From NCBI GenBank assembly GCA_963805065.1, contig CAWDSS010000010.1:792359-856358 (forward strand): a stretch of 64,000 bases of DNA, given 5' to 3'. This document shows positions 11,673-63,472 of the stretch, piece after piece. How positions within the stretch are numbered: position 1 is the first letter of the stretch; each line of letters begins with the position of its first letter. The notes beneath the pieces were generated by a model. That model saw only the letters and a program-made list of their open reading frames with translations, made no database searches and was not told the origin of the DNA. Both the position numbers and the translations under genes were made by a program. This DNA is from Candidatus Omnitrophota bacterium. Its GTDB lineage: Bacteria > Omnitrophota > Gorgyraeia > Gygaellales > Profunditerraquicolaceae.

Positions 11673-11882
11673 ATGTGTTTGGCTATCCCCATGAGAATTA
11701 AGCAAATCGAAGGACAGTTTGCCCAGGTTGAATCAGGCAGGCTCGTAAGGACAATTAATATCCAAATGCTGCCTCAGGCAAAAAAAGGAGACTATGTGCT
11801 TGTGCATGCGGGGTTTGCCCTGGAGAAAATTGACCCTAAAAGAGCAAAAGAAACCTTAAGGATGATAAATGAAATACGTTGA
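11673..11882 (+). CDS. hypC: hydrogenase maturation chaperone HypC
   Basis: N-terminal MCLAIP motif, about 70 aa, located between hypF and hypD. Confidence 0.85.
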   Translation: MCLAIPMRIKQIEGQFAQVESGRLVRTINIQMLPQAKKGDYVLVHAGFALEKIDPKRAKETLRMINEIR

Positions 11883-36225: not shown

Positions 36226-36386
36226 GGCCATAAGTTATGGAGAATAGTGCTAAACATGTATTCGACATAACTTATATGGCCGAACTTACCCAGCACTGAT
36301 TTTAGTTTATTATTACCAAAATTAGTGCTGGGTTAAATTCACACAATAACTTACTCACACTTAAGAGTGTTCGTAAGTTATGTGCT
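36226..36386 (+). promoter_or_regulatory. three consecutive hairpins between mnmE and folE, function unknown
   Basis: Hairpin 1: 36226-36239 pairs with 36266-36281. Hairpin 2: 36289-36304 pairs with 36318-36333. Hairpin 3: 36342-36386 is a near-perfect palindrome. ATAACTTA/TAAGTTAT occurs four times. Confidence 0.4.
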
Positions 36387-41963: not shown

Positions 41964-42004
41964 TATAATAAATATAAGTCATAATCAGTTATAAGATAAA
42001 ACTC

Positions 42005-44458: not shown

Positions 44459-44504
44459 TAGTATCTTGACAGAGAAAAACCTTAAGGAGTTGAATAGTTT
44501 AAGA

Positions 44505-45302: not shown

Positions 45303-45801
45303 ATGTGTCTTATTAAACACCTACAGTCAGATACATGAATAAAAAACAATTAATTGTTATTTTAGTACTTTAGCATATCCCCACAGCATATTTTAAATAG
45401 CATAGTCAATTTAGCATTGTAGATACAGCATTAAGGTAAAAAAATAAAACAGCTTAAATTAAAAAATTTTGTCATTTTTGCTTTAACTATATGAAAGTAA
45501 ATGGGTTATTTTTTTTGAAAATTGCCTTGAAAACCGACGAGGAATGTGTTAAGCTTATAATGTAAATTTTGTGGCGTTGCGTTAATTAGGGCGCAGATAA
45601 GTCCAATAGGGCGAAAGCCAAGAAGTATAAGAAGCGAACTATACTTTTGGTTGTTCGCCTATTTTGTTTTATAGGGACTTATGAAAGACAAACGCCCCAA
45701 GATAATCTTAGAATACGAACCCTCAGAAGACTCACAGAGGCGACTTGAGCAGGTTTTTGAGATACTTTTTAAGGAAGATGTGGAAAGGAAGTCAGCCGAA
45801 A

Positions 45802-46125
45802 ATGAACGAAATAGTGATAACAGAAGTAAGCATATATCCGGTCAGGCCTAAAGACGGACTCGTTGCTTTTGCTTCCTGCCTTTTTGATAACAAACTCTCT
45901 TTAAATTCCATAGCCATATACACTAAGCCCGATGGTAGTGGTTACCGCCTAGTGTATCCTGCTAAAACACTTCCCAACTGCAAAGAAATAAATTTGTTCT
46001 ACCCTATTAACAAAGAAACAGCGGATATAATTCACAAGGCAATTATAAGCGAATATGAAAAATTGGCTGAAAAGGTAATGAAAGGAGTAAACGATGAACA
46101 TCGAAGAATTGGAAGACATTTTTAA
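45802..46125 (+). CDS. SpoVG-like nucleic-acid-binding protein
   Basis: IVITEVSIYPVRPKDGLVAFASCLFDNKLSLNSIAIY..DGSGYRLVYP matches the SpoVG N-terminal fold pattern. Start taken at the internal ATG. Confidence 0.6.
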   Translation: MNEIVITEVSIYPVRPKDGLVAFASCLFDNKLSLNSIAIYTKPDGSGYRLVYPAKTLPNCKEINLFYPINKETADIIHKAIISEYEKLAEKVMKGVNDEHRRIGRHF

Positions 46126-47221
46126 AAATCACTTACTTTTACCCGATACTATGGTTATAAGAGTCGTATTAGCTACTATAGTTGCGAACAAAATTAAAGG
46201 TGACCCCCTTTGGTTGTTCGTAATAGCACCGCCCTCGTCAGCTAAAACAGAAATTATATCATCGCTTAACGGCTTACCTGATATTTTTCCCTTATCGAGC
46301 CTAACATCACATACACTCGCTAGTGGAATGGTAAGCGTAGATGATAAAGAAAGAAGTCTAATTTACAAGCTAACCAATAAAATTGTTACTCTAAAAGATT
46401 TCACGTCTATTCTTACAATGCACCGTGAGTCAAGAGCGGAAATCCTTTCTCAGCTAAGAGAAATATATGACGGTAGTTATAAAAAGCATTTTGGGACTGG
46501 AGAAAAAACTGATTGGACAGGTAAAATCGGCATTATCGCAGGAGTAACCCCCATAATTGACACCTATTACTCCATATTTCAACTACTCGGTGAAAGATTT
46601 ATACAGTTCAGAATGGAACTTCCAGAGCCCGTTGAAGTAGCCCTCAAAGCAATAGCGAATAGTGGTAAGGAAAAAAAGATAAGATATGAGCTCAAGGGCG
46701 CTATAGCAAAATTCATAAATGAAATAACAATGCCACACAGGGTAATAACTGTTCCTTTGCAGATAGAGAGGCGTATCGCTTATCTTTCAGCTTTTTGTGT
46801 CAAGGCAAGAAGCGGGTCTGTTAGGGAAGGACGAAGCAGGGAGTTAATATATACTCCACCGCCAGAAGCTCCACCCCGTTTAGCAAAACAGTTTATTATG
46901 TTAGCAAGAGGTCTGGCTATAGTTAATGGGAAGAAAATTATTCAAGAAAAAGATTACAATGTTGTTTACAAGGTAGGTCTTGATACTGTGCCCAAACTGC
47001 GCCGAGACATTCTCTCTATTTTAAATGATGAAGGCACTCTCTCCACTAACGACCTAACGAGCAAATTACGTTATCCCTATTCAACAGTAGATAGAGCACT
47101 TGAAGAGCTAAGGAGCCTTGATTTAGTTGATTGTAACGAAACAAAACAATGGAATATAAGTAGTGCGACAAAAAATTATCTGGCTGAAATTAAACCTGTT
47201 TCCGAAACGTCGATAGGATAA
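46094..47221 (+). CDS. P-loop protein (DUF3987/replicative-helicase-like) with a C-terminal wHTH
   Basis: Walker-A-like APPSSAKTE. Walker-B-like IVTLKDFTS. C-terminal ..STVDRALEELRSLDLV... Its start overlaps the SpoVG-like gene. Confidence 0.45.
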   Translation: MNIEELEDIFKNHLLLPDTMVIRVVLATIVANKIKGDPLWLFVIAPPSSAKTEIISSLNGLPDIFPLSSLTSHTLASGMVSVDDKERSLIYKLTNKIVTLKDFTSILTMHRESRAEILSQLREIYDGSYKKHFGTGEKTDWTGKIGIIAGVTPIIDTYYSIFQLLGERFIQFRMELPEPVEVALKAIANSGKEKKIRYELKGAIAKFINEITMPHRVITVPLQIERRIAYLSAFCVKARSGSVREGRSRELIYTPPPEAPPRLAKQFIMLARGLAIVNGKKIIQEKDYNVVYKVGLDTVPKLRRDILSILNDEGTLSTNDLTSKLRYPYSTVDRALEELRSLDLVDCNETKQWNISSATKNYLAEIKPVSETSIG

Positions 47222-47278
47222 ATGTAATAATAAATCAATCTATCCGACTTTTCGGAAAACAACAGAAAGGAGATAGGA

Positions 47279-47470
47279 ATGAATAAGTTAAGAGAAATAA
47301 GGAAACTAAAAGGCCTTACCCAGTACGAACTCGGCAAGGCAATCCGTAAGTATGTCTCATTCATAAGCAACGTTGAAACAGGGAAGTATGACCCGTGGCC
47401 AAATGAAAAAGAAGCTTTAGCTAAGGCTCTGGGCGTTCAGGTAAGCGACATTTTCCCCAAAACGTCCTAA
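47279..47470 (+). CDS. XRE-family HTH regulator
   Basis: LREIRKLKGLTQYELGKAI is a classic HTH_3 pattern. Confidence 0.75.
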   Translation: MNKLREIRKLKGLTQYELGKAIRKYVSFISNVETGKYDPWPNEKEALAKALGVQVSDIFPKTS

Positions 47471-47655
47471 ATCATTTGTGTTTTTTATCATTTTTAATAG
47501 CGAGAGCCAAACCCACACTGGAGACCAAAGGCAGGCCTCCAGCCCCTTCAAGGCGTGTTTGGTTTCTAAGGAGGGAGCACAACGCAGGCGTGCAGACCAC
47601 AGCATAGGCTTGAGTCACTGCTTGGCGCATCTAGCCTGCAAAGACATTATAAACT

Positions 47656-48213
47656 ATGAAAAAACTAACTACCGAGGAGTGCGAGCAGATTGGAATACTT
47701 ACCATTGTGCGGGCGCAGAAATATCATATGTTTAAGATTAGAGAAACGTGGCTTAGACTTGAATTCAACAATGTTTTAGCGCAGAGGCTTGAGGCTATCG
47801 GCCTATACAGCCTAATGCCTAACAGTCCTCTTAGCCTAAGTTTTACCACTTCTAGACTGCATTTTGGTGGTGTGAGATACTGGTTTATCTGTCCTAATTG
47901 CGATAAAAGAGTTGGTAAGTTATTCAAGCCAAAATCCGAACGTGCGTTTTGGTGTCGGCATTGTTATAACCTGACCTATAAATCAACACAGACGCATAAT
48001 CACAGGGTAAACTTGCTCGTAAAGAGGCTAAAGGCTATGGAGGATGAAGCATTTACGCAGGTTAAAAGATTGCTGAGAACACGTAGAGGGTTTGGGGTTT
48101 ATATGAAGGTAGAGGAGAAATTGAACAGGCCTTTTCCCCCACCTCATTGGGTTCGTGGAGACCGCGAGAAGGAAGCATACAATAAATATATTAAGCCGTT
48201 ATTAGAAGGTTAG
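47656..48213 (+). CDS. zinc-ribbon protein of unknown function
   Basis: GGVRYWFICPNCDKRVGKL...FWCRHCYNLTYKS gives two CxxC pairs. Confidence 0.5.
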   Translation: MKKLTTEECEQIGILTIVRAQKYHMFKIRETWLRLEFNNVLAQRLEAIGLYSLMPNSPLSLSFTTSRLHFGGVRYWFICPNCDKRVGKLFKPKSERAFWCRHCYNLTYKSTQTHNHRVNLLVKRLKAMEDEAFTQVKRLLRTRRGFGVYMKVEEKLNRPFPPPHWVRGDREKEAYNKYIKPLLEG

Positions 48214-48425
48214 AAGTTGAGGAATTTAGAAATGGATAACTTAAAGGCTCTGGCAAGTTTCTCTAACGTAGCGAGTTTGACATCACAAGGATGTTTACTC
48301 TCAAGCCTCTGGATATGCTTATAATCAATCTCTGCAAGTCCAGAAAGCTCTTCTTGAGTCAAGTTGTGTTTTAACCTTAATTGGCGAATCCTATGGGAAA
48401 GTTTTACCTTAATGTCCTCGCTCAT
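48210..48425 (-). CDS. XRE-family HTH regulator
   Basis: IRQLRLKHNLTQEELSGLAEI is an HTH_3 pattern. It is the only minus-strand gene inside the island. Confidence 0.75.
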   Translation of the reverse strand: MSEDIKVKLSHRIRQLRLKHNLTQEELSGLAEIDYKHIQRLESKHPCDVKLATLEKLARAFKLSISKFLNF

Positions 48426-48588
48426 AGCGTGAATTTAGCATAAAATAGAAGACATTGACACCTTACCAGTAAGGTGATATATTGTTGTATATATTAAGAT
48501 ATAGAAAAATATGCCTATAGAGTCAAAGTGATTTAAATTTAAGGCAACTCTCAAAGAGGTTGCCTTTTCTGTTGAGAGGAGGCAATGA

Positions 48589-49029
48589 ATGAAGAAGTTA
48601 TTATGTTTGATTACAGTTGTTTCTTTTTTATTTTTAGCGATTGGCTGTTGCACAATAGTTAGCGGTAGGAATCAAAATCTTCCTGTGATATCTACTCCGA
48701 GTGGCGCAAGAGTTATAGTTAATGGTGTTCAGCAACAGTCTCCTTGCACATTAGTATTGGATAGGCAACAACTTTTATATCAAGTTAGGATAGAAAAGGA
48801 TGGTTATGAACCTGTAGAAATAACTTTACGCAGAGGAGTAAATGGTTGGGTATGGGGCAATATTCTGTTTGGTGGTATTATTGGTTTAATAGTCGACATT
48901 TGCACAGGCTCTGTTCATAAATTTACGCCTACAGAAGTGGAAGTAAATTTAGTTCAGAAAAAATTAGGTCTAAATGATTTAAAGAGCAAAGATATACTAT
49001 TTGTTAAATTAGAAGAAGTAAAACATTAG
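48589..49029 (+). CDS. PEGA-domain lipoprotein
   Basis: Lipobox LAIGC. PEGA-like ..GARVIVNGV...PCTLVL......VRIEKDGYEP. C-terminal GNILFGGIIGLIVD segment. Confidence 0.6.
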   Translation: MKKLLCLITVVSFLFLAIGCCTIVSGRNQNLPVISTPSGARVIVNGVQQQSPCTLVLDRQQLLYQVRIEKDGYEPVEITLRRGVNGWVWGNILFGGIIGLIVDICTGSVHKFTPTEVEVNLVQKKLGLNDLKSKDILFVKLEEVKH

Positions 49030-49061
49030 CATTATTCCATCCAAGTCTTATTCAAGCTTGG

Positions 49062-49349
49062 ATGGATGTCTTTATTATTAAGTATATTTCTAAAATGACT
49101 AGAAAACAATTAATAGTTGCTTGGCTTATGGGGATAGCAATTTGCGCTACGTTCTTATTTTATCCTAAACGATATTTCATTAGTGAAAAAGGTTATCAAT
49201 GCTTCTTTGATAAATTGGATAAAGATGATATGTATTATCATAGCGCAATGCCAGTTATGCAATGGGGCTATGTTATTCCCATTTCTCTTTCAATTTTAAT
49301 CATAGGTGGTTTATTAAGCTATACTCTTCGGGAAAGACAAAATAAATAG
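49062..49349 (+). CDS. small two-TM membrane protein
   Basis: Two hydrophobic segments. No motif. Confidence 0.35.
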   Translation: MDVFIIKYISKMTRKQLIVAWLMGIAICATFLFYPKRYFISEKGYQCFFDKLDKDDMYYHSAMPVMQWGYVIPISLSILIIGGLLSYTLRERQNK

Positions 49350-49366
49350 TTAGCATAGGAAACGCT

Positions 49367-50176
49367 ATGAAAAAATATTTGATAATAGTAATATGTTTAT
49401 TGTTGTGCGGATGCGCATCGCCTAGTCTCTATATACGTTCTGATATGGATAGCGACTATAAGCTGGCAAAATCAACAGATAAAATATCGGTATTGATTAT
49501 TGACGATACAGATATAAGAACTCGAGAATTTGGTAAACTATTAATATTCGAAATGAAAAATGCAGGTTTTAATATCGTTGATAACGTGCTGGATTCTAAC
49601 ATTACACTATGCTATACGTTAGACCAAGAAACATCACAAATTGATTTAAGTCTACCAATGACCACTCCTTCTTATACAAAAGGTTCTTTTTCTACCTATG
49701 GAGCCTATGGGAGCGGAAGTGGAACATATTCTCAAACGACCACACAAACACAATATATCCCTTATTCTGTGCCTTTTACAGTCAAGTCAGTGTTAATTTC
49801 GCTTTATCCAACATGGAAATTCGATTTCAAGAAATCTATATGGGAAGGCTATTTAGGGGTAGAAGAAGGAACATTCAAAAAATATGCGAAAGACTGTGTT
49901 AGAATGCTCTTGTCTCATTATGGCGAAAATTTTGATGGTTACGTCCCTTTAACAATAAAAAAGATAAATAATAAGGTGAAAGTCGATATAGAATCTTTTA
50001 ACAATCAGCGTCTTGAAGAAAAAGAAAGAATCAGAAAGAAAATAGCTGACTTTGCTCGTCAACATAAAGATTTTGAAGAACTAAGACCTATTATGTATAA
50101 ACTTTCTTTAGACCCGAAGAATGCAAATCTTACTTTACAGGAATTGTATGATATGGCAAAAAACAAGAAACCCTAA
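49367..50176 (+). CDS. lipoprotein of unknown function
   Basis: Signal peptide with lipobox LLCGCA. Confidence 0.5.
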   Translation: MKKYLIIVICLLLCGCASPSLYIRSDMDSDYKLAKSTDKISVLIIDDTDIRTREFGKLLIFEMKNAGFNIVDNVLDSNITLCYTLDQETSQIDLSLPMTTPSYTKGSFSTYGAYGSGSGTYSQTTTQTQYIPYSVPFTVKSVLISLYPTWKFDFKKSIWEGYLGVEEGTFKKYAKDCVRMLLSHYGENFDGYVPLTIKKINNKVKVDIESFNNQRLEEKERIRKKIADFARQHKDFEELRPIMYKLSLDPKNANLTLQELYDMAKNKKP

Positions 50177-50305
50177 AAAATGTGTGGCGTATAATTTAGG
50201 CATTAGATATAAAATTATTCCTTCTTGGGGGGTGTATAGGGGGTAGGTAAGGCCAGATATTTTTTTATTGATATTTGCTATAGTATATGCTATACTTTAT
50301 TATTG

Positions 50306-50470
50306 ATGGACATCCGCAAGATAAGAAAGAAACTTAACCTTACTCAAGAACAGCTAGCACAAAGATTAGGCGTCTCGTTTACTACGGTTAATAGGTGGGA
50401 GAAAGGCAAGAATGAGCCTAGTCCTCTGGCTCTTAGGGCATTAGAAGAATTGGAGAATAAGATAAAATGA
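50306..50470 (+). CDS. 54-aa HTH protein (not in the ORF track), possible directionality or regulatory factor
   Basis: Translation [39 protein letters not shown].. Its stop overlaps the recombinase start (ATGA). Confidence 0.6.
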
Positions 50471-52092
50471 AGGTAGCCATTTACGCAAGAGTGTCAACAG
50501 AGAAACAAGAAAAACAGGAAACAGTCCAGTCTCAGCTAGAGGCCTTAAGGGATTACGCTAAGAAGAGTAACTATACCGTTTGTGGAGAGTATATTGACGA
50601 GGGTTACTCTGGCGAGCTGTTAGACAGGCCAGCATTGGACAGGTTAAGAGACGACGCTAAGAAGAAACTCTTTGATATTGTTTTGGTTCATTCTCCAGAC
50701 AGGTTTTCAAGAAAGTTTATTTATCTAGGGCTAGTTCAGGAAGAGTTAAAGAAAAGCGGGGTTAATATCGTTTTCTTGAACAGGCCAGACAGCAAGGATA
50801 CTCCCGAAGATAATCTCTTAAATGGAGTGCAAGGCCTTATTGCTGAGTATGAGAAGGCAAAGATATTAGAGCGCACCCGCAGGGGCAAGCAACATAAAGC
50901 TAGGGCGGGCGTAATAGTTACTAGCATTGCTCCTTATGGGTATCGATATATCCAGAAAGATAAAAGCCAGAATAAAGACGGCTACTATGAGATTAATCCA
51001 GAGGAAGCAACGGTTGTAAGTATGATATTTGACCTCTTCGTCAATAAGCAGATGAGCATTAGAGCGATAGCCAGAGAATTGACCCGACGAGGTATAGCGA
51101 CCCGCAAGGGCAAGCATTGGCGCACAAGCACTCTACACAGGATAATTCGCAATGAGACTTACGCAGGGGTTACTTACTATAATAAGCATATCGCTATGGA
51201 ATCGCTTAAGCCAAGAAAAGATAACGGATACAGAAGGCGCAAGAATTGCAGCTTGCACCTGCGTCCAAGAGAACAATGGATTCCTATTCAATTGCCAGAG
51301 CAGTTAAGGTTGGTCGATAGAGAGACCTTTGATTCAACGCAGAAGCAACTTAAGCGGAATAGCGAATTATCACCTCGCAACGTTAAATATCAATATTTAT
51401 TGAAAGGCCTTTTGCAGTGTGGGGAGTGCAATTCTCCCTATTTAGGTACGCCTTGCCATAGTAAACTGTATTATAGGTGCGGTAACAGACATCGAACATT
51501 CCCCTTGCCTAAAGAGTGCAAGGCGCCGACGCTTAGCGCTCCTATTCTTGAGAATTTAGTTTGGTCTACACTTAGTCAAGCAATACAGCACCCTCAAATA
51601 ATCATTGAGCAGGCTAAGAGGTTGCACTTTAACGAGGGCAAACGGCGCAGAGATACCGAGAAGGAATTAGAGCGGGTAGAAACTGCCTTAGTCAATACGC
51701 AGAAAGAAGAAGATAGGTTGTTAGACGCCTATCGCAGTGAAATTATAACCCAAGAGCAATTAAGGGCGCAGATGGCCAAGATTCAAGAGAAGAAAGACAC
51801 GCTGAGCAAAGAAAAACAGAGATTAAACGAGGTAGTATCTCAAGTTGTGCCAGTAGACCGAGTAAAAAATAGCATAAAAGAGCACTGTAAACTAGTAAAA
51901 CCCCGCCTGAAAAATCTCACTTTTGAGGAAGAGCAACAAATTTTACGCCTACTAGTTAATAAGGTAGTGCTTGAAAGGGATAAAGTTAGAATAAAAGGCG
52001 TAATTCCTCTCTATGGCGAGAATGGTGATATTGCGTCCCAATCATCAGCGCATTATGCCCGCCGGCAACAGCTACCTCCAAAGCCCTTTTAG
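50467..52092 (+). CDS. large serine recombinase (integrase)
   Basis: N-terminal resolvase domain [12 protein letters not shown] (catalytic Ser) and ..SPDRFSR... Recombinase domain, Cys-rich zinc ribbon (CGECNSPY...CGNRH) and coiled coil. The ORF runs across the right att core. Confidence 0.9.
52037..52048. repeat. right att core (CCCAATCATCAG)
   Basis: Identical to 40279-40290. Confidence 0.8.
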
Positions 52093-54715: not shown

Positions 54716-55663
54716 ATGGCTGGACTAGATTTTGAAAAACCCATTGCAGAGCTGGAAAATAAAATCCAGGAATTAAAAACTTTTGTTTCGGATAAGAAGA
54801 TTGATTTATCCAGCGAAATCAGGCGCCTGGAAGATAAGCTGGAGCACCTGAAAAAAGAAACTTATACCAATTTGACCGCCTGGCAGAGGGTACAGTTAGC
54901 CAGGCACCCGCAAAGGCCATATACACTGGATTATATCGGCTTGCTGATGACGGATTTTATAGAGTTGCATGGTGACAGGGCGTTTGCCGACGATAAAGCA
55001 ATGGTCTGCGGCCTTGCCAAGATTGATAAACAGAAAATCGTGGTTATGGGGCATCAAAAAGGAAGAGACACAAAGGAGAATCTCAGGCGTAATTTCGGCT
55101 GTGCCCATCCTGAAGGCTACCGTAAGGCCTTAAGGATTATGGAATTGGCGCAGGAGTTTTCTCTGCCGATTATTATATTTATAGACACGCCCGGTGCCTA
55201 TCCTGGGGTAGGCGCTGAAGAACGCGGCCAGTCGCAGGCAATAGCAGTAAATTTAAGAGAAATGATACGCGTAGATGTGCCGATTATTGCCACCGTAATA
55301 GGAGAGGGTGGCTCCGGCGGAGCTTTAGGCATAGGCGTGGCAGACAGGGTCTGCGTATTAGAGAATGCCTATTATTCGGTTATATCACCTGAGGGGTGTG
55401 CTGCGATATTATGGAAAGACGGGGCAAAAGCACCCCTGGCAGCAGAGGTATTAAAATTAACCGCACCGGATTTACTGAAGATGGGCCTGATTGAAGAAAT
55501 CATCCCCGAACCATTGGGCGGCGCTCACCGTGACCCGCAAAACATGGCTGCCACACTTAAGGAAGTCATAACAAGGAACCTTAAGGAACTACAAGAACTA
55601 AGTAAGGAAGATTTGTTAAAGTTAAGGTATAAAAAATACAGAAGCATTGGTATGGTAGCATGA
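54716..55663 (+). CDS. accA: acetyl-CoA carboxylase carboxyltransferase alpha subunit
   Basis: [22 protein letters not shown] and [10 protein letters not shown]. Confidence 0.9.
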
Positions 55664-55743
55664 ACCCCCGCACCTTCTATGAATTCAGTAATTTAAGAAC
55701 GAACAGGTGCAGGGTTCATAGAAAGTAAAGAAGGTGCGGGGTG
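55661..55743 (+). repeat. ~80-nt inverted-repeat element, copy 1 (arms CCCCGCACCTTCT / AGAAGGTGCGGGG)
   Basis: Left arm 55666-55678, degenerate middle copy 55705-55718, right arm 55729-55741. The right arm contains the SD-like GAAGGTG and the GTG start of padR. Confidence 0.8.
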
Positions 55744-56250
55744 AATGAGCAAGAATTAATACTATTAGGCCTGCTTAAAGAAAGCCCCAAGCACGGTTAT
55801 GATATAAAGCTTAAAATCAAGGAAATCCTTTCCTTATTTGGCATAGATTTAAAATCAATATATTACCCCTTAAGGCTGCTGGAAAGAAAAGGCCTGGTAA
55901 CTAAACGCGCAGGCAAAGTCGGCAACAGGCCGAAACGTTTTGTATATTCTTTAACCTCTAAGGGGGAAAGCCGGTTTAATGAACTCTTGAACAAAAGTTT
56001 TCTCAATTTCACCCGTCCCCGTTTTACGCTGGACTTAAGCCTGTATTTCCTGCGTTATATAAAATCCTCCATTGCCAAGCGCAGATTGCGCGGCCGCATG
56101 CGTGTATTGAAAAACCTTTCCCGGGGATTAAGACAATTGATACATGCCAAAAAAAATAAGTCCTCTCCTATGGCCCATATCTTGGAACACAACCTGCGGT
56201 TGTTAGAAGCAGAATACAACTTCCTCTGGGAATTAACCAAAACATTATAA
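55741..56250 (+). CDS. PadR-family transcriptional regulator
   Basis: ILLGLLKESPKHGYDIK....IYYPLRLLERKGLV is a typical PadR wHTH. GTG start. Confidence 0.8.
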   Translation: MNEQELILLGLLKESPKHGYDIKLKIKEILSLFGIDLKSIYYPLRLLERKGLVTKRAGKVGNRPKRFVYSLTSKGESRFNELLNKSFLNFTRPRFTLDLSLYFLRYIKSSIAKRRLRGRMRVLKNLSRGLRQLIHAKKNKSSPMAHILEHNLRLLEAEYNFLWELTKTL

Positions 56251-56282
56251 GCCAAGAGGACAAATCAGCCCCCCAAAATCTC

Positions 56283-56312
56283 TTGACAAAACTATTGTGA
56301 TAATGGTAAAAT
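56283..56312 (+). promoter_or_regulatory. putative promoter (TTGACA, 18-nt spacer, TAAAAT) sharing a 15-nt block with 24821-24835
   Basis: Read directly. Confidence 0.4.
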
Positions 56313-56352
56313 CCAAATAGTAAAATTTTACTATATTTTTAAAGGTTTAACC

Positions 56353-56640
56353 ATGGATTGGGAAAGCCAGACGCAGGAAAAATTCAGGTTGTTTATTTCT
56401 AAGATCCCGGTTTTTCACCGCCACATTACAGAAGTGGCGGTAACCAGGAAAGCCCAGGAAAACGCCTTGCAAAGGAAGGCCTTAAAAATAGAAGAAGAGG
56501 ATGTCATCAGTGCATTTTTCTCCGATGTCCCCTCGCCTTTTTATAGCATGATGGTCAGGCTATTGGACCAAACAGGATTTGATTACAAGAAATACGGATT
56601 CCCTAAAAAGACTAAAGAACGAAAGAACGTAGAAACTTAA
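56353..56640 (+). CDS. small protein with a PCP_red-like domain (tentative)
   Basis: W..Q.QEKF...ISKIPVFHRH..E....KAQENA loosely resembles the protochlorophyllide-reductase C-terminal domain. Confidence 0.35.
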   Translation: MDWESQTQEKFRLFISKIPVFHRHITEVAVTRKAQENALQRKALKIEEEDVISAFFSDVPSPFYSMMVRLLDQTGFDYKKYGFPKKTKERKNVET

Positions 56641-56647
56641 GAACTAA

Positions 56648-57660
56648 ATGAAAATAGCAGTTATTGGCGCAGGCGCGATAGGCAGTGTTGTCGCCGGATA
56701 TTTAAAGCTACAAGGCGAAGATGTTTGTTTGATAGGCCATGCCGATTCTATTAAAGCCATTAAACAACAAGGATTGCACATATCCGGGGTGCGCGGAGAT
56801 TTTGATATAAAACTCAACGCCTATGATAAGCTTGAGACTCAGCCTGATTTAGTAGTTTTGGCAGTAAAGACACAAGACCTTGATGCCGCCTGTAATGATA
56901 ATATAAGCTTCATTAAGAACTCAACAAATTTAACTACGCAAAACGGTATTCAGGCTGATAATATAGTCGCTAAATATGTCCCCAAACAGCGTATAATTTC
57001 TAGCATCGTAATGTTTGGCTCTACTTATTTAGAGCCCGGTAAAGTCGTGCATAATTTTGAAGGCAGCTGGATTCTGGGCAAAATGTTTAATGAAAAGCCC
57101 GGCAAAGAACTAATCGAAATTTCCCGGGTTCTCGATAAAGCATTTCCTACGATTATAAGCGAAGATTTAGAAGGCATGAAATACCTTAAGATTTTTGTTA
57201 ATGCCAATAACTGCATCCCGGCGATATTGGGATTAAGTATGCAGGATGCCTTTAAAGACCCCGATATGAGCAAGATAAGCATTGATATCTGGAAAGAAGG
57301 CTGGGATATAGTTTCTCAAAGCAGGGATAAAATTAGTTTCCCTGCCGGGTTTTCCCGTGGAGAATATTACAAAGTTAACCTCTATGCCTTCCATAGAAGC
57401 CGCCAAAATCTTTTCAGGAATTATGTCCGAGCTTAAGCAAAGAGCCTCTCTATGGCTCAATTTTACAAAGTATAAAGAGGAACCGGGTTTCCGAAATTGA
57501 TTATATTAACGGAGAATTCGTAAGGCTGGCAAAAAATTCAGGATTAGCTGCGCTCCTGAATAAGAAATTGGTTGAGATGGTGCATAAAGTTGAAACAGCT
57601 AATAGATTCTTCAGCAAAGAAGAGCTGCTGAACAATACGAAAGGATTAATTAATGAGTGA
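56648..57660 (+). pseudogene. 2-dehydropantoate-2-reductase (PanE/ApbA) family oxidoreductase, frame broken near 57320 and 57437
   Basis: N-terminal MKIAVIGAGAIGS. After ..DIVSQ the +1 frame reads AGIKLVSLPGFPVENITKL..SEL. A further +1 frame then reads SKEPLYGSILQSIKRNRVSEIDYINGEFV...INE*. Confidence 0.7.
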
Positions 57661-58249
57661 AGTTAATACGCCGTTTCCTAAATTAAAACTTACAGTAGTT
57701 GACGTGCAAGGCGAGTGCTATCACGGATATAAGGTCGGCGATGAGCTGATCCTGGAAGATTTTACTCACCCGCCGAAATTTTTTTGTTTGGGCCTCGCCC
57801 ATGCATTATTCCCGGTCATATATGCCTTAAGTTTCGGGGCTAAGTTTCCTTTCCGGGATAATCAGCGTTCTTTATTAGTCACCTGCCCTGACGGAGGGAA
57901 ATTAGAGTTTAAGGCAGAGATTTTAGATAAACAGGGAAAAGTAGAAACCCTCCCTAAGGATCCCAATTTCAAAGGGCCTAATCCTAAGAAAATGGTTATT
58001 GAAGTTGTAAAGGCCAAAGGAAAATGCACATTTGGTTACAAAGTAGGAGATAAATGGGAAACCCAGGGTTTAAAATGTATACCCGGATTTTGCGGAGCGG
58101 CATTTCACTCCGCGTTCCCCGCGCTGTTTGCACTAAATTTCGGCGCAAAATTTTTTTTTATGGATGATCCGGATTCCATTGATACAGTCACCTGCCCTGA
58201 TGGGGGTAATATTATTTTTAAAGTAACCCGCGCAAAGGAGCAAAAATAA
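57653..58249 (+). CDS. tandem-duplicated TIGR04076-family protein
   Basis: Two ~95-aa halves each contain C.(H/F)GYKVGD...FC......FP..(Y/F)AL.FGAKF.F.......VTCPDGG. Confidence 0.65.
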   Translation: MSEVNTPFPKLKLTVVDVQGECYHGYKVGDELILEDFTHPPKFFCLGLAHALFPVIYALSFGAKFPFRDNQRSLLVTCPDGGKLEFKAEILDKQGKVETLPKDPNFKGPNPKKMVIEVVKAKGKCTFGYKVGDKWETQGLKCIPGFCGAAFHSAFPALFALNFGAKFFFMDDPDSIDTVTCPDGGNIIFKVTRAKEQK

Positions 58250-58254
58250 TACAA

Positions 58255-59521
58255 ATGAAAAAAAGAAGAGTAGTGATAACCGGAATTGGCGTAGTTTCTC
58301 CCAATGGCATAGGTAAACATAAGGTTTGGAAGGCCATGTCCGGCGGAAAATCCGGGGTAAAACTTGTGGATGGGTTTGATGTTTCTGTATTCAATACCAA
58401 GATTGCAGCTGAGGTGAGAGATTTTGATCCTTTTAAATTAGGGCTTACTCACGAAGAAGTGATGCGTATGGATAGATACGTGCAGTTTGGGGTGGTCTGC
58501 GGGAGATATGGCGTTAAAAGACAGCGGGTTGGATTTTTCCAAAGAGGACCCCCAGCGCATCGGGGTATGCTTGGCTAATGCAATCTGCGGCACAAAATAT
58601 ATGGAAGAAGAATTTGCCTTGGTTACCGAGGATGGTAAGAATCCCATTGACCCTTCAAAGGTGCGGCCGGATCTGTATGATGCGGCAATGTTTAATACGC
58701 CCTCTATAGAAATCAGCGCAAGATACGGTTTAAAAGGAATCTGCAATACTCTTTCTACGGGTTGCACTGCCGGAACTGATTCCTTGGGATTTGGTTTAGA
58801 GACTATCCAGGATGGAGAACAGGATATCATGATCTGCGGAGCAGCAGAAGCACCGATTACCCCGATTACCTTTGGCGCATTTGACGTGGTAAATGTCTTA
58901 TCCGTGCGTAATGATGAGCCCGGAAGAAGCCAGCCGTCCCTTTGATAATAAGCGCGATGGTTTTGTCTTATCCGAGGGCGCAGGGATCTTGATTTTAGAA
59001 GAATTAAATCATGCATTAAAACGTAATGCCCATATTTATGCGGAGATCTTCGGTTTTGGCACAAGCTGCAATGCCTTTCATATGACAGACCTTCCTTCAG
59101 ACGGACGGGCAATGGCCAGTTGTATTAGCCTGGCTTTAAAAGATGCTGGATATCAAACCGCAGGAAATAGATTATATCAATGCCCATGGTTCATCCACGC
59201 GGATGAACGATATATTTGAAACCAATGCCTATAAGGCGATATTTGGCGATTACGCCTATAAACTGCCGATAAGTTCCCTTAAGTCGATGATCGGCCATCC
59301 TTTGGCAGCGGCAAATGCCATAGAGATGACCGTCTGCTCGATGATTTTTGAGAAGAATATCCTTCCTCCGACGATAAATCAGGAAGAAAAAGATCCTCTT
59401 TGCGATTTGAATTATATTCCCAATACAGGCAATACAAAAAAAAGTCAACACCATATTAAAAACCAGCAGCGGATTTTCCGGGATACATTCATCATTAGTA
59501 TTAAAGAGGTATACAGGATAA
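58255..59521 (+). pseudogene. beta-ketoacyl synthase (KS-alpha type), frame broken about 4 times
   Basis: VVITGIGVVSPNG. Active-site TGCTAG (Cys). EIDYINAHGSST (His). KSMIGHPLAAA (His). Successive +1 shifts near 58495, 58915, 59150 and at the A8 run at 59441-59448. The reconstructed end ..SSLVLKRYTG* overlaps the next ATG. Confidence 0.8.
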
Positions 59522-60750
59522 TGGAAAGAATTGCGGTTACAGGAATAGGTATAGTCAGCCCTTCAGGAATCGGCAAGCGCCAGTTTTGGGCCAATATAAA
59601 ATCGGCCGTTCTTTTGTCAAAGAAATTACCCGTTTTGACGCTTCCCAATACCCCTCGCATATCGCCGGGCAAATCGATGATTTGGAAAAATACAGCCATG
59701 TATCCGAAAGGCTGCTTAAAAAAATTGATGCCTTTTCGCACATGGCACTTGATTGCATCAGAAATGGCCTTGCAGGACGCCGGTATTGATATTAAGAATG
59801 AAGACCCGAATCTTGTAGGGATATTTTTAGGTAATGCCATCGGCGGGTGGCTTTATGCGGAAACAGAACTACGCGATTTATATATCGAAGGCCGCGAAGG
59901 AGTTTCTCCTTATATGGCTTCTGCCTGGTTTCCTGCGGCGCCTCAAGGCCAGGTTTCCATTTATTACGGGATAAAGGGTTTTAGTAAAACCGTAGTGGCT
60001 GACCGGGCCAGTTCTTCCATGGCCATAGGCTATGCGCGCAAGGTATTAAGCAAGGATAAACTGAATATGATTTTAGCAGGCGGCATGGAAGCGCCGGTGA
60101 CGCCTTACGCGCTGTTATGTTGCAATACCTACGGCGCGCTTTCTAAAAATAATTCCCATCCTGATATTGCCTACCGGCCTTTTGACAAAAAGCGCGATGG
60201 CTGCGTAATCGCAGAAGGCGCAGGCATCGTGGTTATGGAGGGTATTGCGCGCGCAAAGGCAAGAAAGGCAAATATTTTCGCTTATATTTCCGGCTACGGC
60301 ACAACCTGTGACGGAGTTGACAGGATAAATCCTGCTTCTGACGGTGTGGAATTGGCCCGCGCAATTAAAATGGCGCTTTCCGAAGCAAAGGTTTCACCCG
60401 ACGAAATAGATTACATTAGCTTCGATGGATTAGCAGTTGATATTTGGGATGATTCAGAAATAAAAGCAATAAAAAGTGTTTTTGGAAACAGGATAAAAGA
60501 TATTCCGGTGAGCTGTCCTAAATCCATGTTTGGGAATTTACTCGGGGCATCGGGTGCGGTAGATTTAATTATTACGATTCTGGCAATGGAGCATAACCTG
60601 GTGCCGCCCACCATAAATTTAGACGAACCTTGCATAAACGGCTTAAATTTCATTAAAAAACAAGCAAAAGAATATAAAATAGACAAGGCATTGATAATTT
60701 CCCGCGGAAGAGGCGGGATAAATTCCGCGCTTGTTATAGAAAAACAGTAA
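59521..60750 (+). pseudogene. KS-beta / chain-length-factor-like ketosynthase lacking the catalytic triad, frame broken twice
   Basis: MERIAVTGIGIVSPSG. The active-site position reads ADRASSS (no Cys). The His positions read SFDGLAV and SMFGNLLGA. A -1 shift near 59600 and a +1 shift near 59750 mean that ORF 59586..59789 carries the true middle segment. Confidence 0.75.
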
Positions 60751-60755
60751 TATTC

Positions 60756-60877
60756 GTGTAATGTGTAAAGTGTAATGTGTAATGCAGGTGTAATGTGTAT
60801 ATGTGTAACGGATAAAGCACTTGCATCACACAATCAAACATTACACAACGTTACACATTACACGTTAAAGTTACACA
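60756..60877. repeat. heptamer arrays (GTGTAAT)x~7 and inverted (ATTACAC)x~4 forming a long imperfect hairpin
   Basis: Read directly. It fills the intergenic gap between KS-beta and the radical SAM gene. Confidence 0.85.
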
Positions 60878-60889
60878 GAAAGGATTATT

Positions 60890-62224
60890 ATGAAAATTCT
60901 ATTTGTCATGCCAAAGGTAGGTGCTTGGGCAACTCACGGCATACATAAATCGCCGAATCAGTTATATGCGCATTGGGCCAGTTACATACGCGAACAAGGA
61001 TACCCTGATGTCGCGGTTATTGACGGCAGGGCTTATGAAATACCCATGGATCAATTAATAGAACAGGTTAAAGCCAAGAATCCCGATATCGTGGTTATGG
61101 GAGAGCAGATACATGGTTACGCCGGTTACGGGGTTTTACGCCACTTTAAAGAAGCAGCACAAAGGATTAAACAGGCGCTTCCCAAAACAAAAATCATTTT
61201 AGGCGGGCTGTGGTATTCAGCTATGCCTGTGCCGACCTTGGAAGAGAATCCCGCCGTAGATTTTGTAGTAATGGGGGAAGAGGAATCTTTTGGCGATTTA
61301 ATCAAAGCCATAGATAAAAAGAAAGACTTAAAAGACGTGGGCGGCGTTACTTCGCGCGTTGACGGTAAAATTGTCATGGGGCCGCATAAGCCCTTGATGA
61401 CTGATTTGGATAAGTTGCCTTTACCGGCCTATGATTTATTCCCTATGGATAAATATGTAGGGCACACCCATTGGAAGCCATTTGTGGACATGGTTACTTC
61501 GCGGGGCTGCCCCTCTGCCTGTACATTCTGTTATGAATGGGATCAGTTTGACCCGCGTTCCCCTTCTGATTTCCTAAAATGGCGCGCAAAATCTCCGGAA
61601 CGGGTTATTGAAGAGCTGGAATTACTGCATAAAAAATATGGAGTAAAAGTAGTGGTTATCCAGGACGACAATTTTAATGTTGACCCGGCCAGAGTCAAAA
61701 GATTTTGCGAATTAAAGAAACAAAAGAATATTCCGATCAAATGGGTTTCCTTAGGCAGGGCTGTTGATTGGGTGAATTGCGAATCAATTTTACCGCTGAT
61801 GAAAGAAACCGGGCTGTTCATGGGGGTATTTGGCATTGAGGTTACAACGCAGGAAGAGTTAAAAAGAATCGCCAAGGGCACTACCATTGATCAGATTAAG
61901 AAAACTATCGAGATTTTACGCAGGAATGATATCGCTATCGTCGCCGATATCATGATGGGTTTTGACTATGACACCGAAGCGATAATTAAACAGAGGTTTG
62001 AATTTGCCGACCAGGTTGATCCGGATGTCTTATGGATTGGCTATGTAACTCCCGCGCCGAATTCTCCGATGTGGAGGATAGCATTAAAGAAAAATTGGAT
62101 TGATCCTAAAAAGGTCGATTTTAGCACCTGGGATTTTCTCCATCCGGTTATTCCTACGGATCACCTCTCTATAGAGGAGCTGGGCCGTTTAGGCGCCTGG
62201 TGTATGCGTGAGTTTTATCTCTAA
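60890..62224 (+). CDS. B12-binding-domain radical SAM protein
   Basis: N-terminal Rossmann-like B12 domain (..VVMGEQ..ILGG..) and SRGCPSACTFC (CxxxCxxC). Confidence 0.8.
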   Translation: MKILFVMPKVGAWATHGIHKSPNQLYAHWASYIREQGYPDVAVIDGRAYEIPMDQLIEQVKAKNPDIVVMGEQIHGYAGYGVLRHFKEAAQRIKQALPKTKIILGGLWYSAMPVPTLEENPAVDFVVMGEEESFGDLIKAIDKKKDLKDVGGVTSRVDGKIVMGPHKPLMTDLDKLPLPAYDLFPMDKYVGHTHWKPFVDMVTSRGCPSACTFCYEWDQFDPRSPSDFLKWRAKSPERVIEELELLHKKYGVKVVVIQDDNFNVDPARVKRFCELKKQKNIPIKWVSLGRAVDWVNCESILPLMKETGLFMGVFGIEVTTQEELKRIAKGTTIDQIKKTIEILRRNDIAIVADIMMGFDYDTEAIIKQRFEFADQVDPDVLWIGYVTPAPNSPMWRIALKKNWIDPKKVDFSTWDFLHPVIPTDHLSIEELGRLGAWCMREFYL

Positions 62225-62362
62225 GCCCGGCAGGATAAACAGGATCATGGAGAGTAATTTTGACATTCTGGCAAAGCTTTGCTTCCAGGATGTTATGGCA
62301 GGCGTGGGAAAGTGGGAAGCAGGAGCAACCAAAGGCGAAGTGCACGTATAGCGGAGGTTGAA

Positions 62363-62599
62363 ATGGACAATAAACAAAAAATCAAAGACATCTTAGTAAA
62401 ATTATTAAAGGTAAAGCCCGAAGAATTAAAAGATGATGTGACATTGCAGGATGGTATTGGGGTTGATTCAACCGAGATGGTTGAAACAGTCATTGCCCTG
62501 GAAAAGGCGTTTGGTATGAAACTTAGCCCCAAAGAGATAACCAAGTTTTCCACCATTAGCGATATTGATAAGGTTATCCAGTCTAAAATAACCTCATGA
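62363..62599 (+). CDS. acyl carrier protein
   Basis: GVDSTEMVE phosphopantetheine-attachment (DS) motif, about 78 aa. The GGAGG SD precedes the internal ATG at 62363. Confidence 0.8.
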   Translation: MDNKQKIKDILVKLLKVKPEELKDDVTLQDGIGVDSTEMVETVIALEKAFGMKLSPKEITKFSTISDIDKVIQSKITS

Positions 62600-62678
62600 G
62601 CCCCGCACCTTCTAAATATTCAAGCGTTTTAAAATTTAGAAGGCAGGGGTATATGAATAGGAAAGAAGGTGCGGGGTG
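62598..62678 (+). repeat. ~80-nt inverted-repeat element, copy 2
   Basis: Left arm 62601-62614, degenerate middle copy 62637-62649, right arm 62664-62676. The right arm carries the SD and the GTG start of the cyclase gene. Confidence 0.8.
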
Positions 62679-63472
62679 AGAATAATTGACCTAAGTTTGC
62701 CTATTGATGAGAAGGCCTTTGAGGTCCACGCGTAGATATAGAGCGGGTTGGCCATAAAGAGGGAGTAGAAAAATTCAATCGGGTGATTATGGGTAAGACC
62801 TTGCTGGGTAAATTAAAATACGCTTTAGGCCAGCGCATAGTTAAAAAGCAAGACTTGCCTGACGAAGAATTCTTATCTCTGGAAGTTGTGCATTCTCCTG
62901 TGCACGTGGGTACTCACCTCGATTATTCATTTCACTATGGCTCTGTTTCCCAAGGGCATCCCTCTAAGACTGCAGAAGAGATCCCTCTGGAATGGTGTTA
63001 TGCTGACGCAGTTAAGCTGGATTTTTCCCAGAAAAAACCCAATGAGACAATTAATGCCAGGGATATAGATACCGCCTTAAAGAAAATAAATTATTCTCTT
63101 AAGCCAAACGATATTGTTTTATTGTATACCGGCGCGGATAAATTATACGGGACGCCGGCATATTTTGCTGATTATCCCGGCATAGATACCTCTTCCATAG
63201 ATTATTTCCTAGATAGGGGAATTAATATTTTTGGCGTGGATACCATGGGCATAGACAGGCCTTACAGATTTATGCTCAAGGAATTCCTGGAGAAAAAAGA
63301 TCCAAAATTATTATACCCCGCGCATTTTTACGGGAGAAAAAGAGAATTTATCCATATAGAAAGATTGGCTAATTTAGATAAGCTGCCTGATTTTGGTTTT
63401 AAGGTAATTTGTTTCCCGGTAAAAATTAAAAACACAGGCGCTGCCTGGTCAAGAGTGGTGGCAATAATATGA
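62676..63472 (+). pseudogene. putative cyclase (kynurenine-formamidase-like, PF04199-type), frame broken near 62733
   Basis: GTG-RIIDLSLPIDEKAFEVHA* is the typical family N-terminus. The sequence continues in another frame as DIERVGHKEG...HSPVHVGTHLD (HxGTHxD metal motif). Confidence 0.7.

Follow-up and report, generated by a model that had tools for sequence, protein, structure and literature searches.

What are the two hairpin-forming elements, of about 80 nt each, that lie across the junctions between accA and padR and between an acyl carrier protein (ACP) gene and a cyclase gene in a 64,000-nt stretch of contig CAWDSS010000010.1 (assembly GCA_963805065.1, positions 792,359 to 856,358, forward strand; hereafter the window) from a Candidatus Omnitrophota bacterium, and how are they tolerated at a place where one arm of the hairpin carries the downstream gene's Shine-Dalgarno (SD) sequence and start codon? 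The initial annotation of this region, made from the sequence alone, considered them to be either a conserved two-state translational switch or a domesticated MITE (miniature inverted-repeat transposable element). From the analysis described here, we consider it likely that both copies are miniature, non-autonomous derivatives of a mobile GIY-YIG cassette of approximately 300 bp, the nuclease of which would mobilise them, and that translational coupling would open the stem. As judged from their sequences, the hosts of the cassette are Omnitrophota and some Planctomycetota represented by metagenome-assembled genomes (MAGs), and the miniatures are MITE-like derivatives that arose by internal deletion.

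On re-checking, the bases and positions previously given for both hairpins were all correct, and the anatomy described for them was borne out, i.e., the arms, the SD-like right arm, the start codon in the base of the stem and a degenerate middle copy of the right arm (Table 1). The elements extend from 55661 to 55745 and from 62597 to 62680; each of them begins at the stop codon of the upstream gene and ends in the GTG of the downstream gene. Their 13-nt arms and a few flanking bases are identical, the distance from the start of one arm to the start of the other is 63 nt in both copies, and the interiors have diverged, being approximately half identical. The four exact matches to the arms that are present in the window all belong to these two inverted pairs; with up to two mismatches, five matches were found versus 0.85 expected, a number reached in 0 of 100 shuffles. 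Copy 1 is reproduced base for base, including its run of five Cs, in an independent short-read Logan assembly, and the GTG start of padR is supported by an identical PadR of 169 aa in the database (P0001) that uses the same start. The names assigned earlier to the neighbouring genes (AccA, PadR, ACP and cyclase) were confirmed by Pfam matches.

The comparison of orthologous sites with and without the element shows that the empty sites contain the sequence ...ATGAA... only once. The window gene 25976-26893 has an empty site that reads ...AAATTAGAT-ATGAAA-ATCGCC (its start being written ATGAAAATCGCC), and its ortholog in locus L056 is filled, ...AAATTA-ATGAA[cc..element..gg]TGAAA-GTCGCC, with TGAAAGTCGCC after the element. 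Likewise, in loci L007 and L112, whose aligned blocks are 76-87% identical in nucleotide sequence, a site that is filled in one locus is a plain SD...ATGAA start in the other, and this holds in both directions. Copy 1 is absent from 7 contigs that encode four distinct PadR orthologs (65-74% identity); in these contigs the gene order DUF212-YkuD-accA-padR is kept, and the element is missing from the junction, where the end of accA and the start of padR share ATGA. The homologs of PadR served for this comparison, as an exact-protein look-up of the AccA of the window gave no record. These empty sites read ...ACAATGAATCAACAG..., for example ...GTTGTACA-ATGAA-TCAACAGGAATTA, and the site of copy 1 reads ...GGTAGC-ATGAA-C[CCCC...GGGG]-TGAA-TGAGCAAGAATTA. 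Since the empty orthologs hold a single ATGAA, one event added both the element and the second TGAA at copy 1, and parsimony over these sequences favours an insertion in the lineage of the window. For copy 2, an orthologous filled site was detected in a different species (L052:4855-4942), where the cyclase ortholog begins with GTGAAGATAGTAGAT, that is, MKIVDLSLPIDE. Four other genes of the window, with starts at 11869, 25976, 53435 and 56648, begin with ATGAA and have no element, and their orthologs in L004, L056, L048 and L053 are filled exactly there; judged from these orthologs, the four starts are unoccupied target sites.

The family to which both copies belong was defined by a scan of one genome per species with the pattern CCGCACCTTCT-N35-65-AGAAGGTGCGG, in which exact arms were required. 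At least 117 loci in about 40 assemblies were recovered, at least 14 of them in one MAG, and all but 5 of these stretches come from Candidatus Omnitrophota MAGs or from MAGs labelled as Planctomycetota/Phycisphaerae; the other five, from Nocardia, Microbacterium and Paucibacter, are chance palindromes of high GC content. The counts given below rest on these stretches and refer to 124 exact-arm copies, 107 of which could be oriented by a start codon in the right flank. In the sense orientation, copies 1 and 2 reach 63.7 and 75.5 bits with a covariance model built from the family (R1), against 34-38 bits in antisense; this model detects no third copy in the 64 kb of the window. Within the fetched loci this model adds about 23 copies with imperfect arms to the at least 120 exact ones, so the exact-arm sample overstates the conservation of the arms. 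In the orientation of the gene the consensus is A-TGAA-CC-CCGCACCTTCT-aaATATTCAA...(G-rich middle)...TTGAATAAGAA-AGAAGGTGCGG-G(G/A)-TGAA, where the perfect 13-nt terminal inverted repeats (TIRs; CCCCGCACCTTCT and AGAAGGTGCGGGG) are lengthened by an ATTCAA/TTGAAT box; the bodies of the window copies have 76-77 nt and the cores of the family 60-87 nt.

The position of these elements relative to genes is not random. In 107 of the 124 copies the right arm is directly followed by [GA][GA]TG, which in nearly all cases starts a long open reading frame (ORF); on the other side, the upstream TGA ends a long ORF in just about half of the copies, and for this reason ATGAA is assigned to the junction itself and not to the upstream gene. 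In 100 of the 107 copies it is the sense strand that is G-rich in the interior, therefore the orientation relative to the gene is fixed. The pair at the base of the stem covaries with the start codon (AACC...GGTG versus AATC...GATG). Direct repeats of 4 nt flank the elements, TGAA/TGAA in 73 copies, and pairs other than TGAA (TGAG/TGAG, TGGA/TGGA and TGCG/TGCG) match 9 times (permutation p < 5e-5), with no correlation of the flanks beyond 4 nt. The 98 downstream proteins match 143 Pfam families, including AlaRS, TsaD and glycosyltransferases, and the commonest of them, the GT4 glycosyltransferases, accounts for just 6 of the 98; this diversity excludes a common ligand or regulon.

The origin of the arms was revealed when the loci were scanned for unpaired ones, since a single long copy of approximately 300 nt with the same ends was found (L109:6427-6727). 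It encodes a once-frameshifted GIY-YIG domain (Pfam PF01541, E 4.8e-14), which spans residues 11-78 of the 101 of the cassette protein and is its single domain. When the frameshift was repaired and the resulting sequence searched against the database, 72 homologs of 85-106 aa were obtained, many of which are intact, 100 aa long and named 'GIY-YIG nuclease family protein [Candidatus Omnitrophota]'. The intact proteins start with MNPAPS..MYHVYLL and finish with ..SLNKKEGAG (24 of the 72 homologs have both the MNPAPS and the EGAG ends), and their genes sit at gcvPA|gcvPB and at dCMP deaminase|nrdR, with a 4-nt overlap with each neighbour. The DNA of the parent reads ATGAA-ccccgcaccttct...ttgaataagaaagaaggtgcggg-GTGAA and its arms are the same as those of the miniatures. 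Because the parent carries these arms at the ends of its ORF, they are the first and the last codons of the nuclease gene: the left arm corresponds to ATG-AAC-CCC-GCA-CCT-TCT (MNPAPS), and the right arm to AAA-GAA-GGT-GCG-GGG-TGA (KEGAG and the stop). The motifs nearest the arms in the short elements, ATATTCAA and TTGAATAAGAA, also match the cassette codons located just inside the arms (..K/N-Y/N-S.. at the N-terminus and S-L-N-K-K at the C-terminus), and the ends of the mini-ORF of copy 2 are leftover N- and C-terminal codons of the GIY-YIG parent. Reliable alignment between short elements and cassette is limited to the terminal ~30 nt of each side; a derivation of the middle segment from the FGKAY codons of the parent was convincing for some copies (e.g., that of L019), and otherwise the alignment of the interior was noise. 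The nearest solved relatives of the nuclease are the UPF0213 proteins BH0048 and EF2693 (E 1e-7), and its NCBIfam search gave a sub-threshold match to a group I intron endonuclease alone.

From these results, the following sequence of events is proposed. The junctions place the insertion at A|TGAA, that is, at a start codon followed by an AAn codon, often within an ATGA stop/start overlap, and TGAA lies on both sides; in the window, the affected sites are accA|padR and ACP|cyclase. As read from the same junctions, the old ATG now starts the ORF of the cassette or its remnant, and the G (or A) with which the right arm ends, together with the duplicated TG, recreates, in frame, the start codon of the host gene. 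The GIY-YIG nuclease, acting in trans in the case of the miniatures, would recognise the ends or the hairpin as well as the TGAA target, and would drive mobility. In the mRNA, the arms are predicted to form a stem of 13-17 bp that would bury the new SD and the start codon. Ribosomes that arrive via the ATGA overlap after translating the upstream gene, or that load at the original ribosome-binding site, would translate across the left arm and melt this stem, and the host gene would then initiate by RNA unfolding or by termination-reinitiation with its original signals kept. The insertion would be tolerated because translation of the host gene stays under those signals. Regarding the earlier suggestion of a domesticated MITE, the repetitive nature of the element, its 4-nt repeats, the empty orthologous sites and the ends shared with a longer coding parent uphold the term MITE and do not support the adjective. 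Many copies in random contexts and orientations had been named as the mark of a plain MITE; many copies do exist, and they are placed at start codons and in the sense orientation.

Table 1. Coordinates of the two elements, of their flanking genes and of further arm-bearing sites (positions in the window, except where preceded by the handle of a family locus).
Feature	Position	Strand	Remarks
accA, upstream of copy 1	54716..55663	+	PF03255, E 2.9e-151
Copy 1 left junction	55660..55664	+	Former padR ATG 55660-55662 overlaps accA stop TGA 55661-55663
Copy 1 left TGAA of the 4-nt duplication	55661-55664	+	
Copy 1 mini-ORF from the old ATG, 22 aa	55660..55728	+	Spans the entire left arm; stops at TAA 55726-55728, immediately 5' to the right arm
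Copy 1 element body, 77 nt	55665..55741	+	Extra C at 55665 before the left arm
Copy 1 left arm, CCCCGCACCTTCT	55666-55678	+	
Copy 1 interior	55679-55728	+	Contains degenerate middle copy AGGTGCAGGGTTCA, 55705-55718
Copy 1 right arm, AGAAGGTGCGGGG	55729-55741	+	SD-like GAAGGTG 55730-55736
Copy 1 right junction	55741..55745	+	Regenerated padR GTG 55741-55743; the right arm ends with its first G
Copy 1 right TGAA of the duplication	55742-55745	+	
padR-family gene, host gene of copy 1	55741..56250	+	
ACP gene, upstream of copy 2	62279..62599	+	PF00550 (PP-binding)
Copy 2 left junction	62596..62600	+	Former cyclase ATG 62596-62598 overlaps ACP stop TGA 62597-62599
Copy 2 left TGAG of the duplication	62597-62600	+	TGAG/TGAG pair
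Copy 2 mini-ORF, intact (MSPAPSKYSSVLKFRRQGYMNRKEGAG and stop)	62596..62679	+	Stop TGA 62677-62679 overlaps the cyclase GTG
Copy 2 element body, 76 nt	62601..62676	+	Left arm 62601-62613
Copy 2 middle copy, TAGAAGGCAGGGG	62637-62649	+	
Copy 2 right arm	62664-62676	+	
Copy 2 right junction	62676..62680	+	Regenerated cyclase GTG 62676-62678; right TGAG 62677-62680
PF04199 cyclase gene, host gene of copy 2	62676..63472	+	Broken near 62729-62733
Subfamily B copies	L062:766-814; L026; L047:1641-1712; L060; L062:6787-6837; L089:3041-3097		L026 copy on the minus strand
Solo right-arm sites	L082:1240-1300; L021:5830-5890; L021:1110-1180		
Copies in non-start contexts	L010:2333-2398; L043:5744-5803; L045:3566-3633; L070:3055-3123; L086:2221-2300		

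Several variants of these elements were observed in the family loci. A second arm subfamily (B), (T/C)CCCGTTAGAGAC...GTCTCTAACGGG(A/G), shows the same ATGAA.../...TGAA junctions at start codons, and its SD (GGAGG or GAGG) sits just 5' of the right arm and not within it; versions of subfamily B with a GC-rich loop (L008:4672, L095:6177 and L080:2801) are located away from start codons. The similarity of the subfamily B arms (GTTAGGC/GCCTAAC) to an integron attC site was judged a coincidence, since the order of core and inverse core is wrong. Solo right arms (AGAAGGTGCGGGGTG) are found after other repeats, such as the palindrome GGGGACGGTTCTC...GAGAACCGTCCCC, and tandem or nested elements are present at L073:4210-4337, L014:7441-7607 and in L089; solo arms and nested elements suggest repeated insertion at regenerated start codons and the presence of more repeat families in these genomes. 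About eight exact-arm copies have no start codon in their flanks (TTAAcc..ggTTAA, TTTATC..GATAAA, GTAAAcc..ggGTAAA and GTCAACcc..ggGTCAAC), and some of these flanks are again direct repeats. Regarding the nuclease, there are 'naked' GIY-YIG relatives of 85-87 aa (P0165, P0169, P0173 and P0182) that start with MYHVYLL and end with ..SLNI, lacking MNPAPS and KEGAG, and the annotation of one relative of this type, P0171, places it in a Sedimentisphaerales MAG; an ordinary small GIY-YIG gene may have been the ancestor of the cassette with arms.

The folding of the elements is relevant to the mechanism proposed above and also to the alternative of a two-state switch. The RNA hairpins predicted for copies 1 and 2 have energies of -34.1 and -37.6 kcal/mol (z-scores of -5.4 and -4.8), and the same copies folded as single-stranded DNA have -16.5 and -18.9 kcal/mol; the arms are predicted to pair in the miniatures and also over ~270 nt in the full-length cassettes. 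The downstream SD and start codon are located inside this stable predicted stem, and the partner strand is in the ORF opened by the old ATG. The start codon of the left junction is kept in 97 of the 107 copies, and in those 97 its ORF crosses the whole left arm. The right arm with its AAGAA prefix is purine-rich and SD-like with reference to the canonical anti-SD, and the left arm resembles the anti-SD.

According to the first part of the initial annotation, the left arm would toggle between the middle segment, which leaves the SD free, and the right arm, which hides the SD and the start codon. Such a translational switch would be selected by the host and would respond to a signal or to the kinetics of co-transcriptional folding. 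Pairing of the left arm with the middle segment is indeed possible: in 70 of the 107 copies it involves at least 8 of 14 bases of that arm, and the mean energy is -12.7 versus -7.5 kcal/mol for shuffled interiors; in addition, the sense orientation is nearly universal, and the middle segments of the subfamily B copies at L047 and L062:766 resemble their own right arms. Nevertheless, in the window copies the alternative fold has -16.0 and -19.6 kcal/mol and the closed fold -32.1 and -35.2 kcal/mol, hence the hairpin formed by left and right arms is about 15-18 kcal/mol more stable; the pairing with the middle is missing in one third of the copies, and relatives lack the element at the same genes. 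The motifs near the arms are better read as coding remnants than as parts of a designed switch because they match the terminal codons of the GIY-YIG gene, which explain the terminal ~30 nt of each side. As to the ligand class that an Rfam scan might have indicated, nothing reached the gathering score in the 64 kb, and no match with E <= 10 overlapped either copy (55500-62900 searched). The absence of an Rfam family and the diverse genes downstream, which point to no common signal, speak against a conserved ligand- or regulon-specific switch, and a riboswitch or another curated cis-regulatory RNA was rejected on the same grounds, i.e., no Rfam match and no coherent set of regulated genes. Paired changes between the arms were found, as the covariation check had sought, and they are not taken to support an RNA structure, as TIR subfamilies that co-evolve would look alike in this respect. 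With genes this diverse, one third of the copies lacking the middle pairing and ends that derive from codons, a dedicated switch is unlikely; a kinetic role for the alternative fold is possible.

If the short elements derive from the cassette, it could be considered that only the full cassettes move, by homing or ectopic insertion, and that each short element is an independent internal deletion that was never mobile. Short and long forms are alike in their ends and in the geometry of their junctions, and the frameshifted cassette of L109 is an example of a long copy in decay. However, 104 non-orthologous pairs of short elements have interiors that are 75-91% identical and of nearly equal length, including a pair of loci within one MAG with 91% identity, which independent deletions would not produce; since these near-identical pairs are located at unrelated genes, it is concluded that the short elements spread as miniatures and not by separate decay in place. 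The 117 loci contain more than 120 short copies versus one long copy, and decay in place is accordingly regarded as quite improbable.

It could also be argued that these are ordinary MITEs moved by an unseen DDE, serine or tyrosine transposase, with the GIY-YIG gene as cargo or as a host of these ends, and with purifying selection as the sole cause of the bias towards start codons. Perfect TIRs and a 4-nt duplication are classic signatures of cut-and-paste transposition, and upstream of copy 1, at a distance of 3.5 kb, there is a gene for a large serine recombinase. In contrast, the only longer element with these ends encodes a 100-aa nuclease alone, which fills exactly the space from arm to arm. 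Random insertion into TGAA followed by selection should leave many intergenic copies away from start codons and in both orientations, which does not fit the frequencies of start-codon flanks (nearly all before a long ORF) and of sense orientation described above. A conventional transposase is thus given a low probability, lower than that of the alternatives already discussed.

The least tenable proposal is a true gene for a small protein of about 27 aa (MNPAPS...KEGAG), or a leader peptide whose sequence matters. In its favour, an ORF that starts at the old ATG and ends with the TGA overlapping the host start is retained in 45 of the 107 copies, and 67 of 107 cores have a length that is a multiple of three. 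Against it, the interior peptide is not conserved, half of the copies meet early stops at scattered places, orthologs differ by indels that do not respect the frame, and copy 1 of the window is already in another frame. This proposal is very improbable; on the scattered stops and the indels that are not multiples of three, a conserved small protein was rejected. Other candidates were rejected as well: a terminator or REP-like element, because a T-tract is lacking, the stem includes the start codon and the elements are inside operons with 4-nt junction overlaps; an operator for the adjacent PadR, because the same arms precede about 100 unrelated genes; and a REP/RAYT or IS200/IS605-type element, because there is one long-range inverted repeat with a loop of ~50 nt and no local hairpins at the ends, and the sole associated ORF is a GIY-YIG gene.

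Several observations weigh against the proposal of a mobile GIY-YIG cassette with miniature derivatives. Its weak step is that the nuclease moves or cuts the DNA of the element, which we infer by analogy; to our knowledge, GIY-YIG enzymes are not known as transposases, and the UPF0213 proteins, the nearest solved relatives, have no known function. A fixed orientation is unusual for transposons with TIRs, and would need an asymmetric mechanism or selection. The single TGAA of the empty sites fits precise excision as well as insertion, the paired changes of the arms fit co-variation of TIRs as well as selection for a hairpin, and most of the secondary copies, which were not selected by the scan, carry imperfect arms, when exact arms had been demanded of the main sample. 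With respect to the translation of the left arm, the differences in length between orthologs are off frame (multiples of three in 8 of 29), which reveals that the full mini-ORF is not maintained; the excess of intact mini-ORFs may reflect merely a 69-nt founder, and SD-like motifs before the old ATG are only 2-fold enriched (32 versus 16 of 97).

Among the systems described so far, the closest by analogy is that of the Ssn nucleases and their SRM/NTS hairpin repeats. The paper on this family describes small GIY-YIG enzymes that bind a hairpin repeat in single-stranded DNA and cut beside it, and its authors point out the layout NTS-ssnA-NTS, which is similar to that of an insertion sequence, raising mobility as a hypothesis (Chenal et al. 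2025, PMC11893778). The shared features are a single-domain GIY-YIG gene of ~90-100 aa, a repeat scattered in the genome that forms a hairpin, and a non-palindromic flank that orients it; the Ssn gene is bracketed by that repeat, and the cassette gene is bounded by its two arms. The base of the stem, TCCCGC...GCGGGA in our elements versus ATTCCCGCG...GCGGGAAT in the NTS, is a resemblance only (PMC11893778). The SRM, as described there, is a self-contained intergenic hairpin of 20-50 nt (PMC11893778), whereas an end of the Omnitrophota cassette supplies only one half of a single long-range inverted repeat and is coding, being part of the nuclease ORF. The single-domain size of the Ssn proteins is found in the parent cassette, and the window copies have lost the nuclease ORF. 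The SRM motif, HGTCWYN(0-2)YYVSBRHN(0-5)WNVSBRGN(0-2)RNCYNB, had no matches in either strand of the window or in the 107 elements. The sections of the Ssn paper that were covered contain no report of insertion at start codons, of a 4-nt duplication, of SD/start regeneration or of miniatures, and the terms 'start codon', 'MITE' and 'translationally coupled' are absent from its main text (PMC11893778).

The resemblance to bacterial MITEs such as Correia/NEMIS, ERIC, RUP and the Rickettsia palindromic elements (RPEs) includes the short length, TIRs with a target-site duplication, many copies, presence/absence polymorphism and co-transcription with the neighbours (PMC10969869). The size, TIRs, duplication and dispersed copies of a MITE are all found here, except that the putative partner is no known transposase: the Omnitrophota parent encodes a GIY-YIG nuclease, in contrast with the DDE transposases encoded by the partners of MITEs. 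The use of the start codon as a target, its reconstruction, the supply of an SD and the fixed orientation are also unlike MITEs, and neither 'start codon' nor 'Shine' occurs in the 2024 review of these elements (PMC10969869). The RPEs persist by being translated in frame with their host genes (PMC10969869). With respect to the tolerance of insertions, RPEs and mycobacterial interspersed repetitive units (MIRUs) are, by analogy, functional counterparts of the Omnitrophota element. The MIRUs, reportedly described by Supply et al. in 1997, are said to be intercistronic repeats of operons with small ORFs that overlap the flanking stop and start codons, which was read as preserving translational coupling; unlike the Omnitrophota element, they are tandem direct repeats, with no inverted repeat, hairpin, SD sequestration or known coding parent.

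Free-standing GIY-YIG homing endonuclease genes (the T-even Seg proteins and I-TevI-type enzymes) encode DNA-binding domains and home to one cognate site via flanking homology, and hairpins that limit translation around the start sites of homing endonuclease genes are known. These genes share with the cassette that a small gene is wedged between conserved host genes, is co-oriented with them and is present or absent between relatives. The Omnitrophota system differs in its bare catalytic domain, its more than 100 unrelated sites, its TIRs, its 4-nt duplication and its abundant miniatures. Translational coupling by RNA unfolding, with the downstream ribosome-binding site in a stem and the other strand within an upstream ORF, the translation of which unmasks the site, is established for MS2 coat/lysis, rpmI-rplT and f1 VII/IX (PMC12548453). 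A similar arrangement is predicted for our elements. The known cases are single, gene-specific and vertically inherited, whereas the Omnitrophota module would be portable, carried by a mobile element. In the searched literature, the arm sequences gave only unrelated primer matches, and no description was found that combines Omnitrophota with a repeat, a palindrome or a MITE; the words 'repeat' and 'palindrom' are absent from a survey paper on Omnitrophota, and a large MITE survey has no Omnitrophota entry. In summary, the searchable literature yielded no report of an element that targets and regenerates start codons, or of this Omnitrophota family.

Other features of the window were also observed. 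It is syntenic with several Omnitrophota element loci (64-79% nucleotide identity), and the homologs of its PadR are annotated as Omnitrophica/Omnitrophota. The cyclase frame that opens with GTG 62676 meets a TAG at 62733 and the remainder is in another frame (ORF 62783-63472); since the L052 ortholog is intact (..FEVHKVAIERVTHK..), this indicates a 1-nt deletion in the window gene. More apparent frameshifts occur within the same cluster (56648-60750): PanE/ApbA has 262 aa in the window, 335-339 aa in relatives and 336 aa as annotated on the Logan contig with the identical PadR, and the first ketosynthase is split (58222-58578, 58463-58945, 58893-59219 and from 59140 onward), the syntenic L053 having two unbroken ketosynthase ORFs of 428 and 416 codons. 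These frameshifts reflect either pseudogenisation of a cluster resembling those for polyketide or fatty acid synthesis, or indel errors of the source assembly. The region 42000-52092, in which a stretch of low GC (0.30-0.35 versus ~0.40) is followed by the gene of the large serine recombinase (50467-52092; 541 aa, Resolvase + Recombinase + Zn_ribbon_recom), may be an integrated mobile element; no link was found between this region and the hairpin elements. Just past a gene that ends at 36221, a hairpin at 36279-36342 (ACCCAGCACTGATT...AATTAGTGCTGGGT) matches the family model only weakly (17 bits, E 0.1) and is probably an ordinary terminator, the base of its stem resembling that of the element by chance. 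The window starts with an ORF of 1615 aa (501-5348).

It is conceivable, at somewhat less than an even chance, that these elements amount to a new class of prokaryotic transposable element, in which a cassette of ~300 bp with a bare 100-aa GIY-YIG transposase, whose TIRs are the end codons of its own gene, targets start codons (A|TGAA) in a fixed orientation, rebuilds the start codon and the SD, persists in an addiction-like manner and has given rise to hundreds of miniatures across Omnitrophota. Addiction-like persistence would follow if the SD-masking stem forces translation of the host gene through the ORF of the element, in such a way that silencing the translation of the element would silence the host gene. 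If confirmed, the system would represent a route of harmless insertion in a compact genome, by which an element lands on start codons and replaces the start, the SD and the upstream coupling. The empty and filled sites, the duplications and the miniatures would provide genomic evidence for the mobility of a unit formed by a GIY-YIG gene and a hairpin, which the Ssn paper raised as a hypothesis only. For annotation, it implies that gene callers will meet GTG starts within strong hairpins, spurious ORFs of 20-30 aa and 'GIY-YIG nuclease family protein' genes with 4-nt overlaps into the genes on either side. A nuclease with defined ends is also a candidate for a sequence- or structure-specific DNA tool. 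Finally, the many genes that share an SD-masking stem of about -30 kcal/mol would make these genomes a natural replicated system in which translational coupling by RNA unfolding can be studied.

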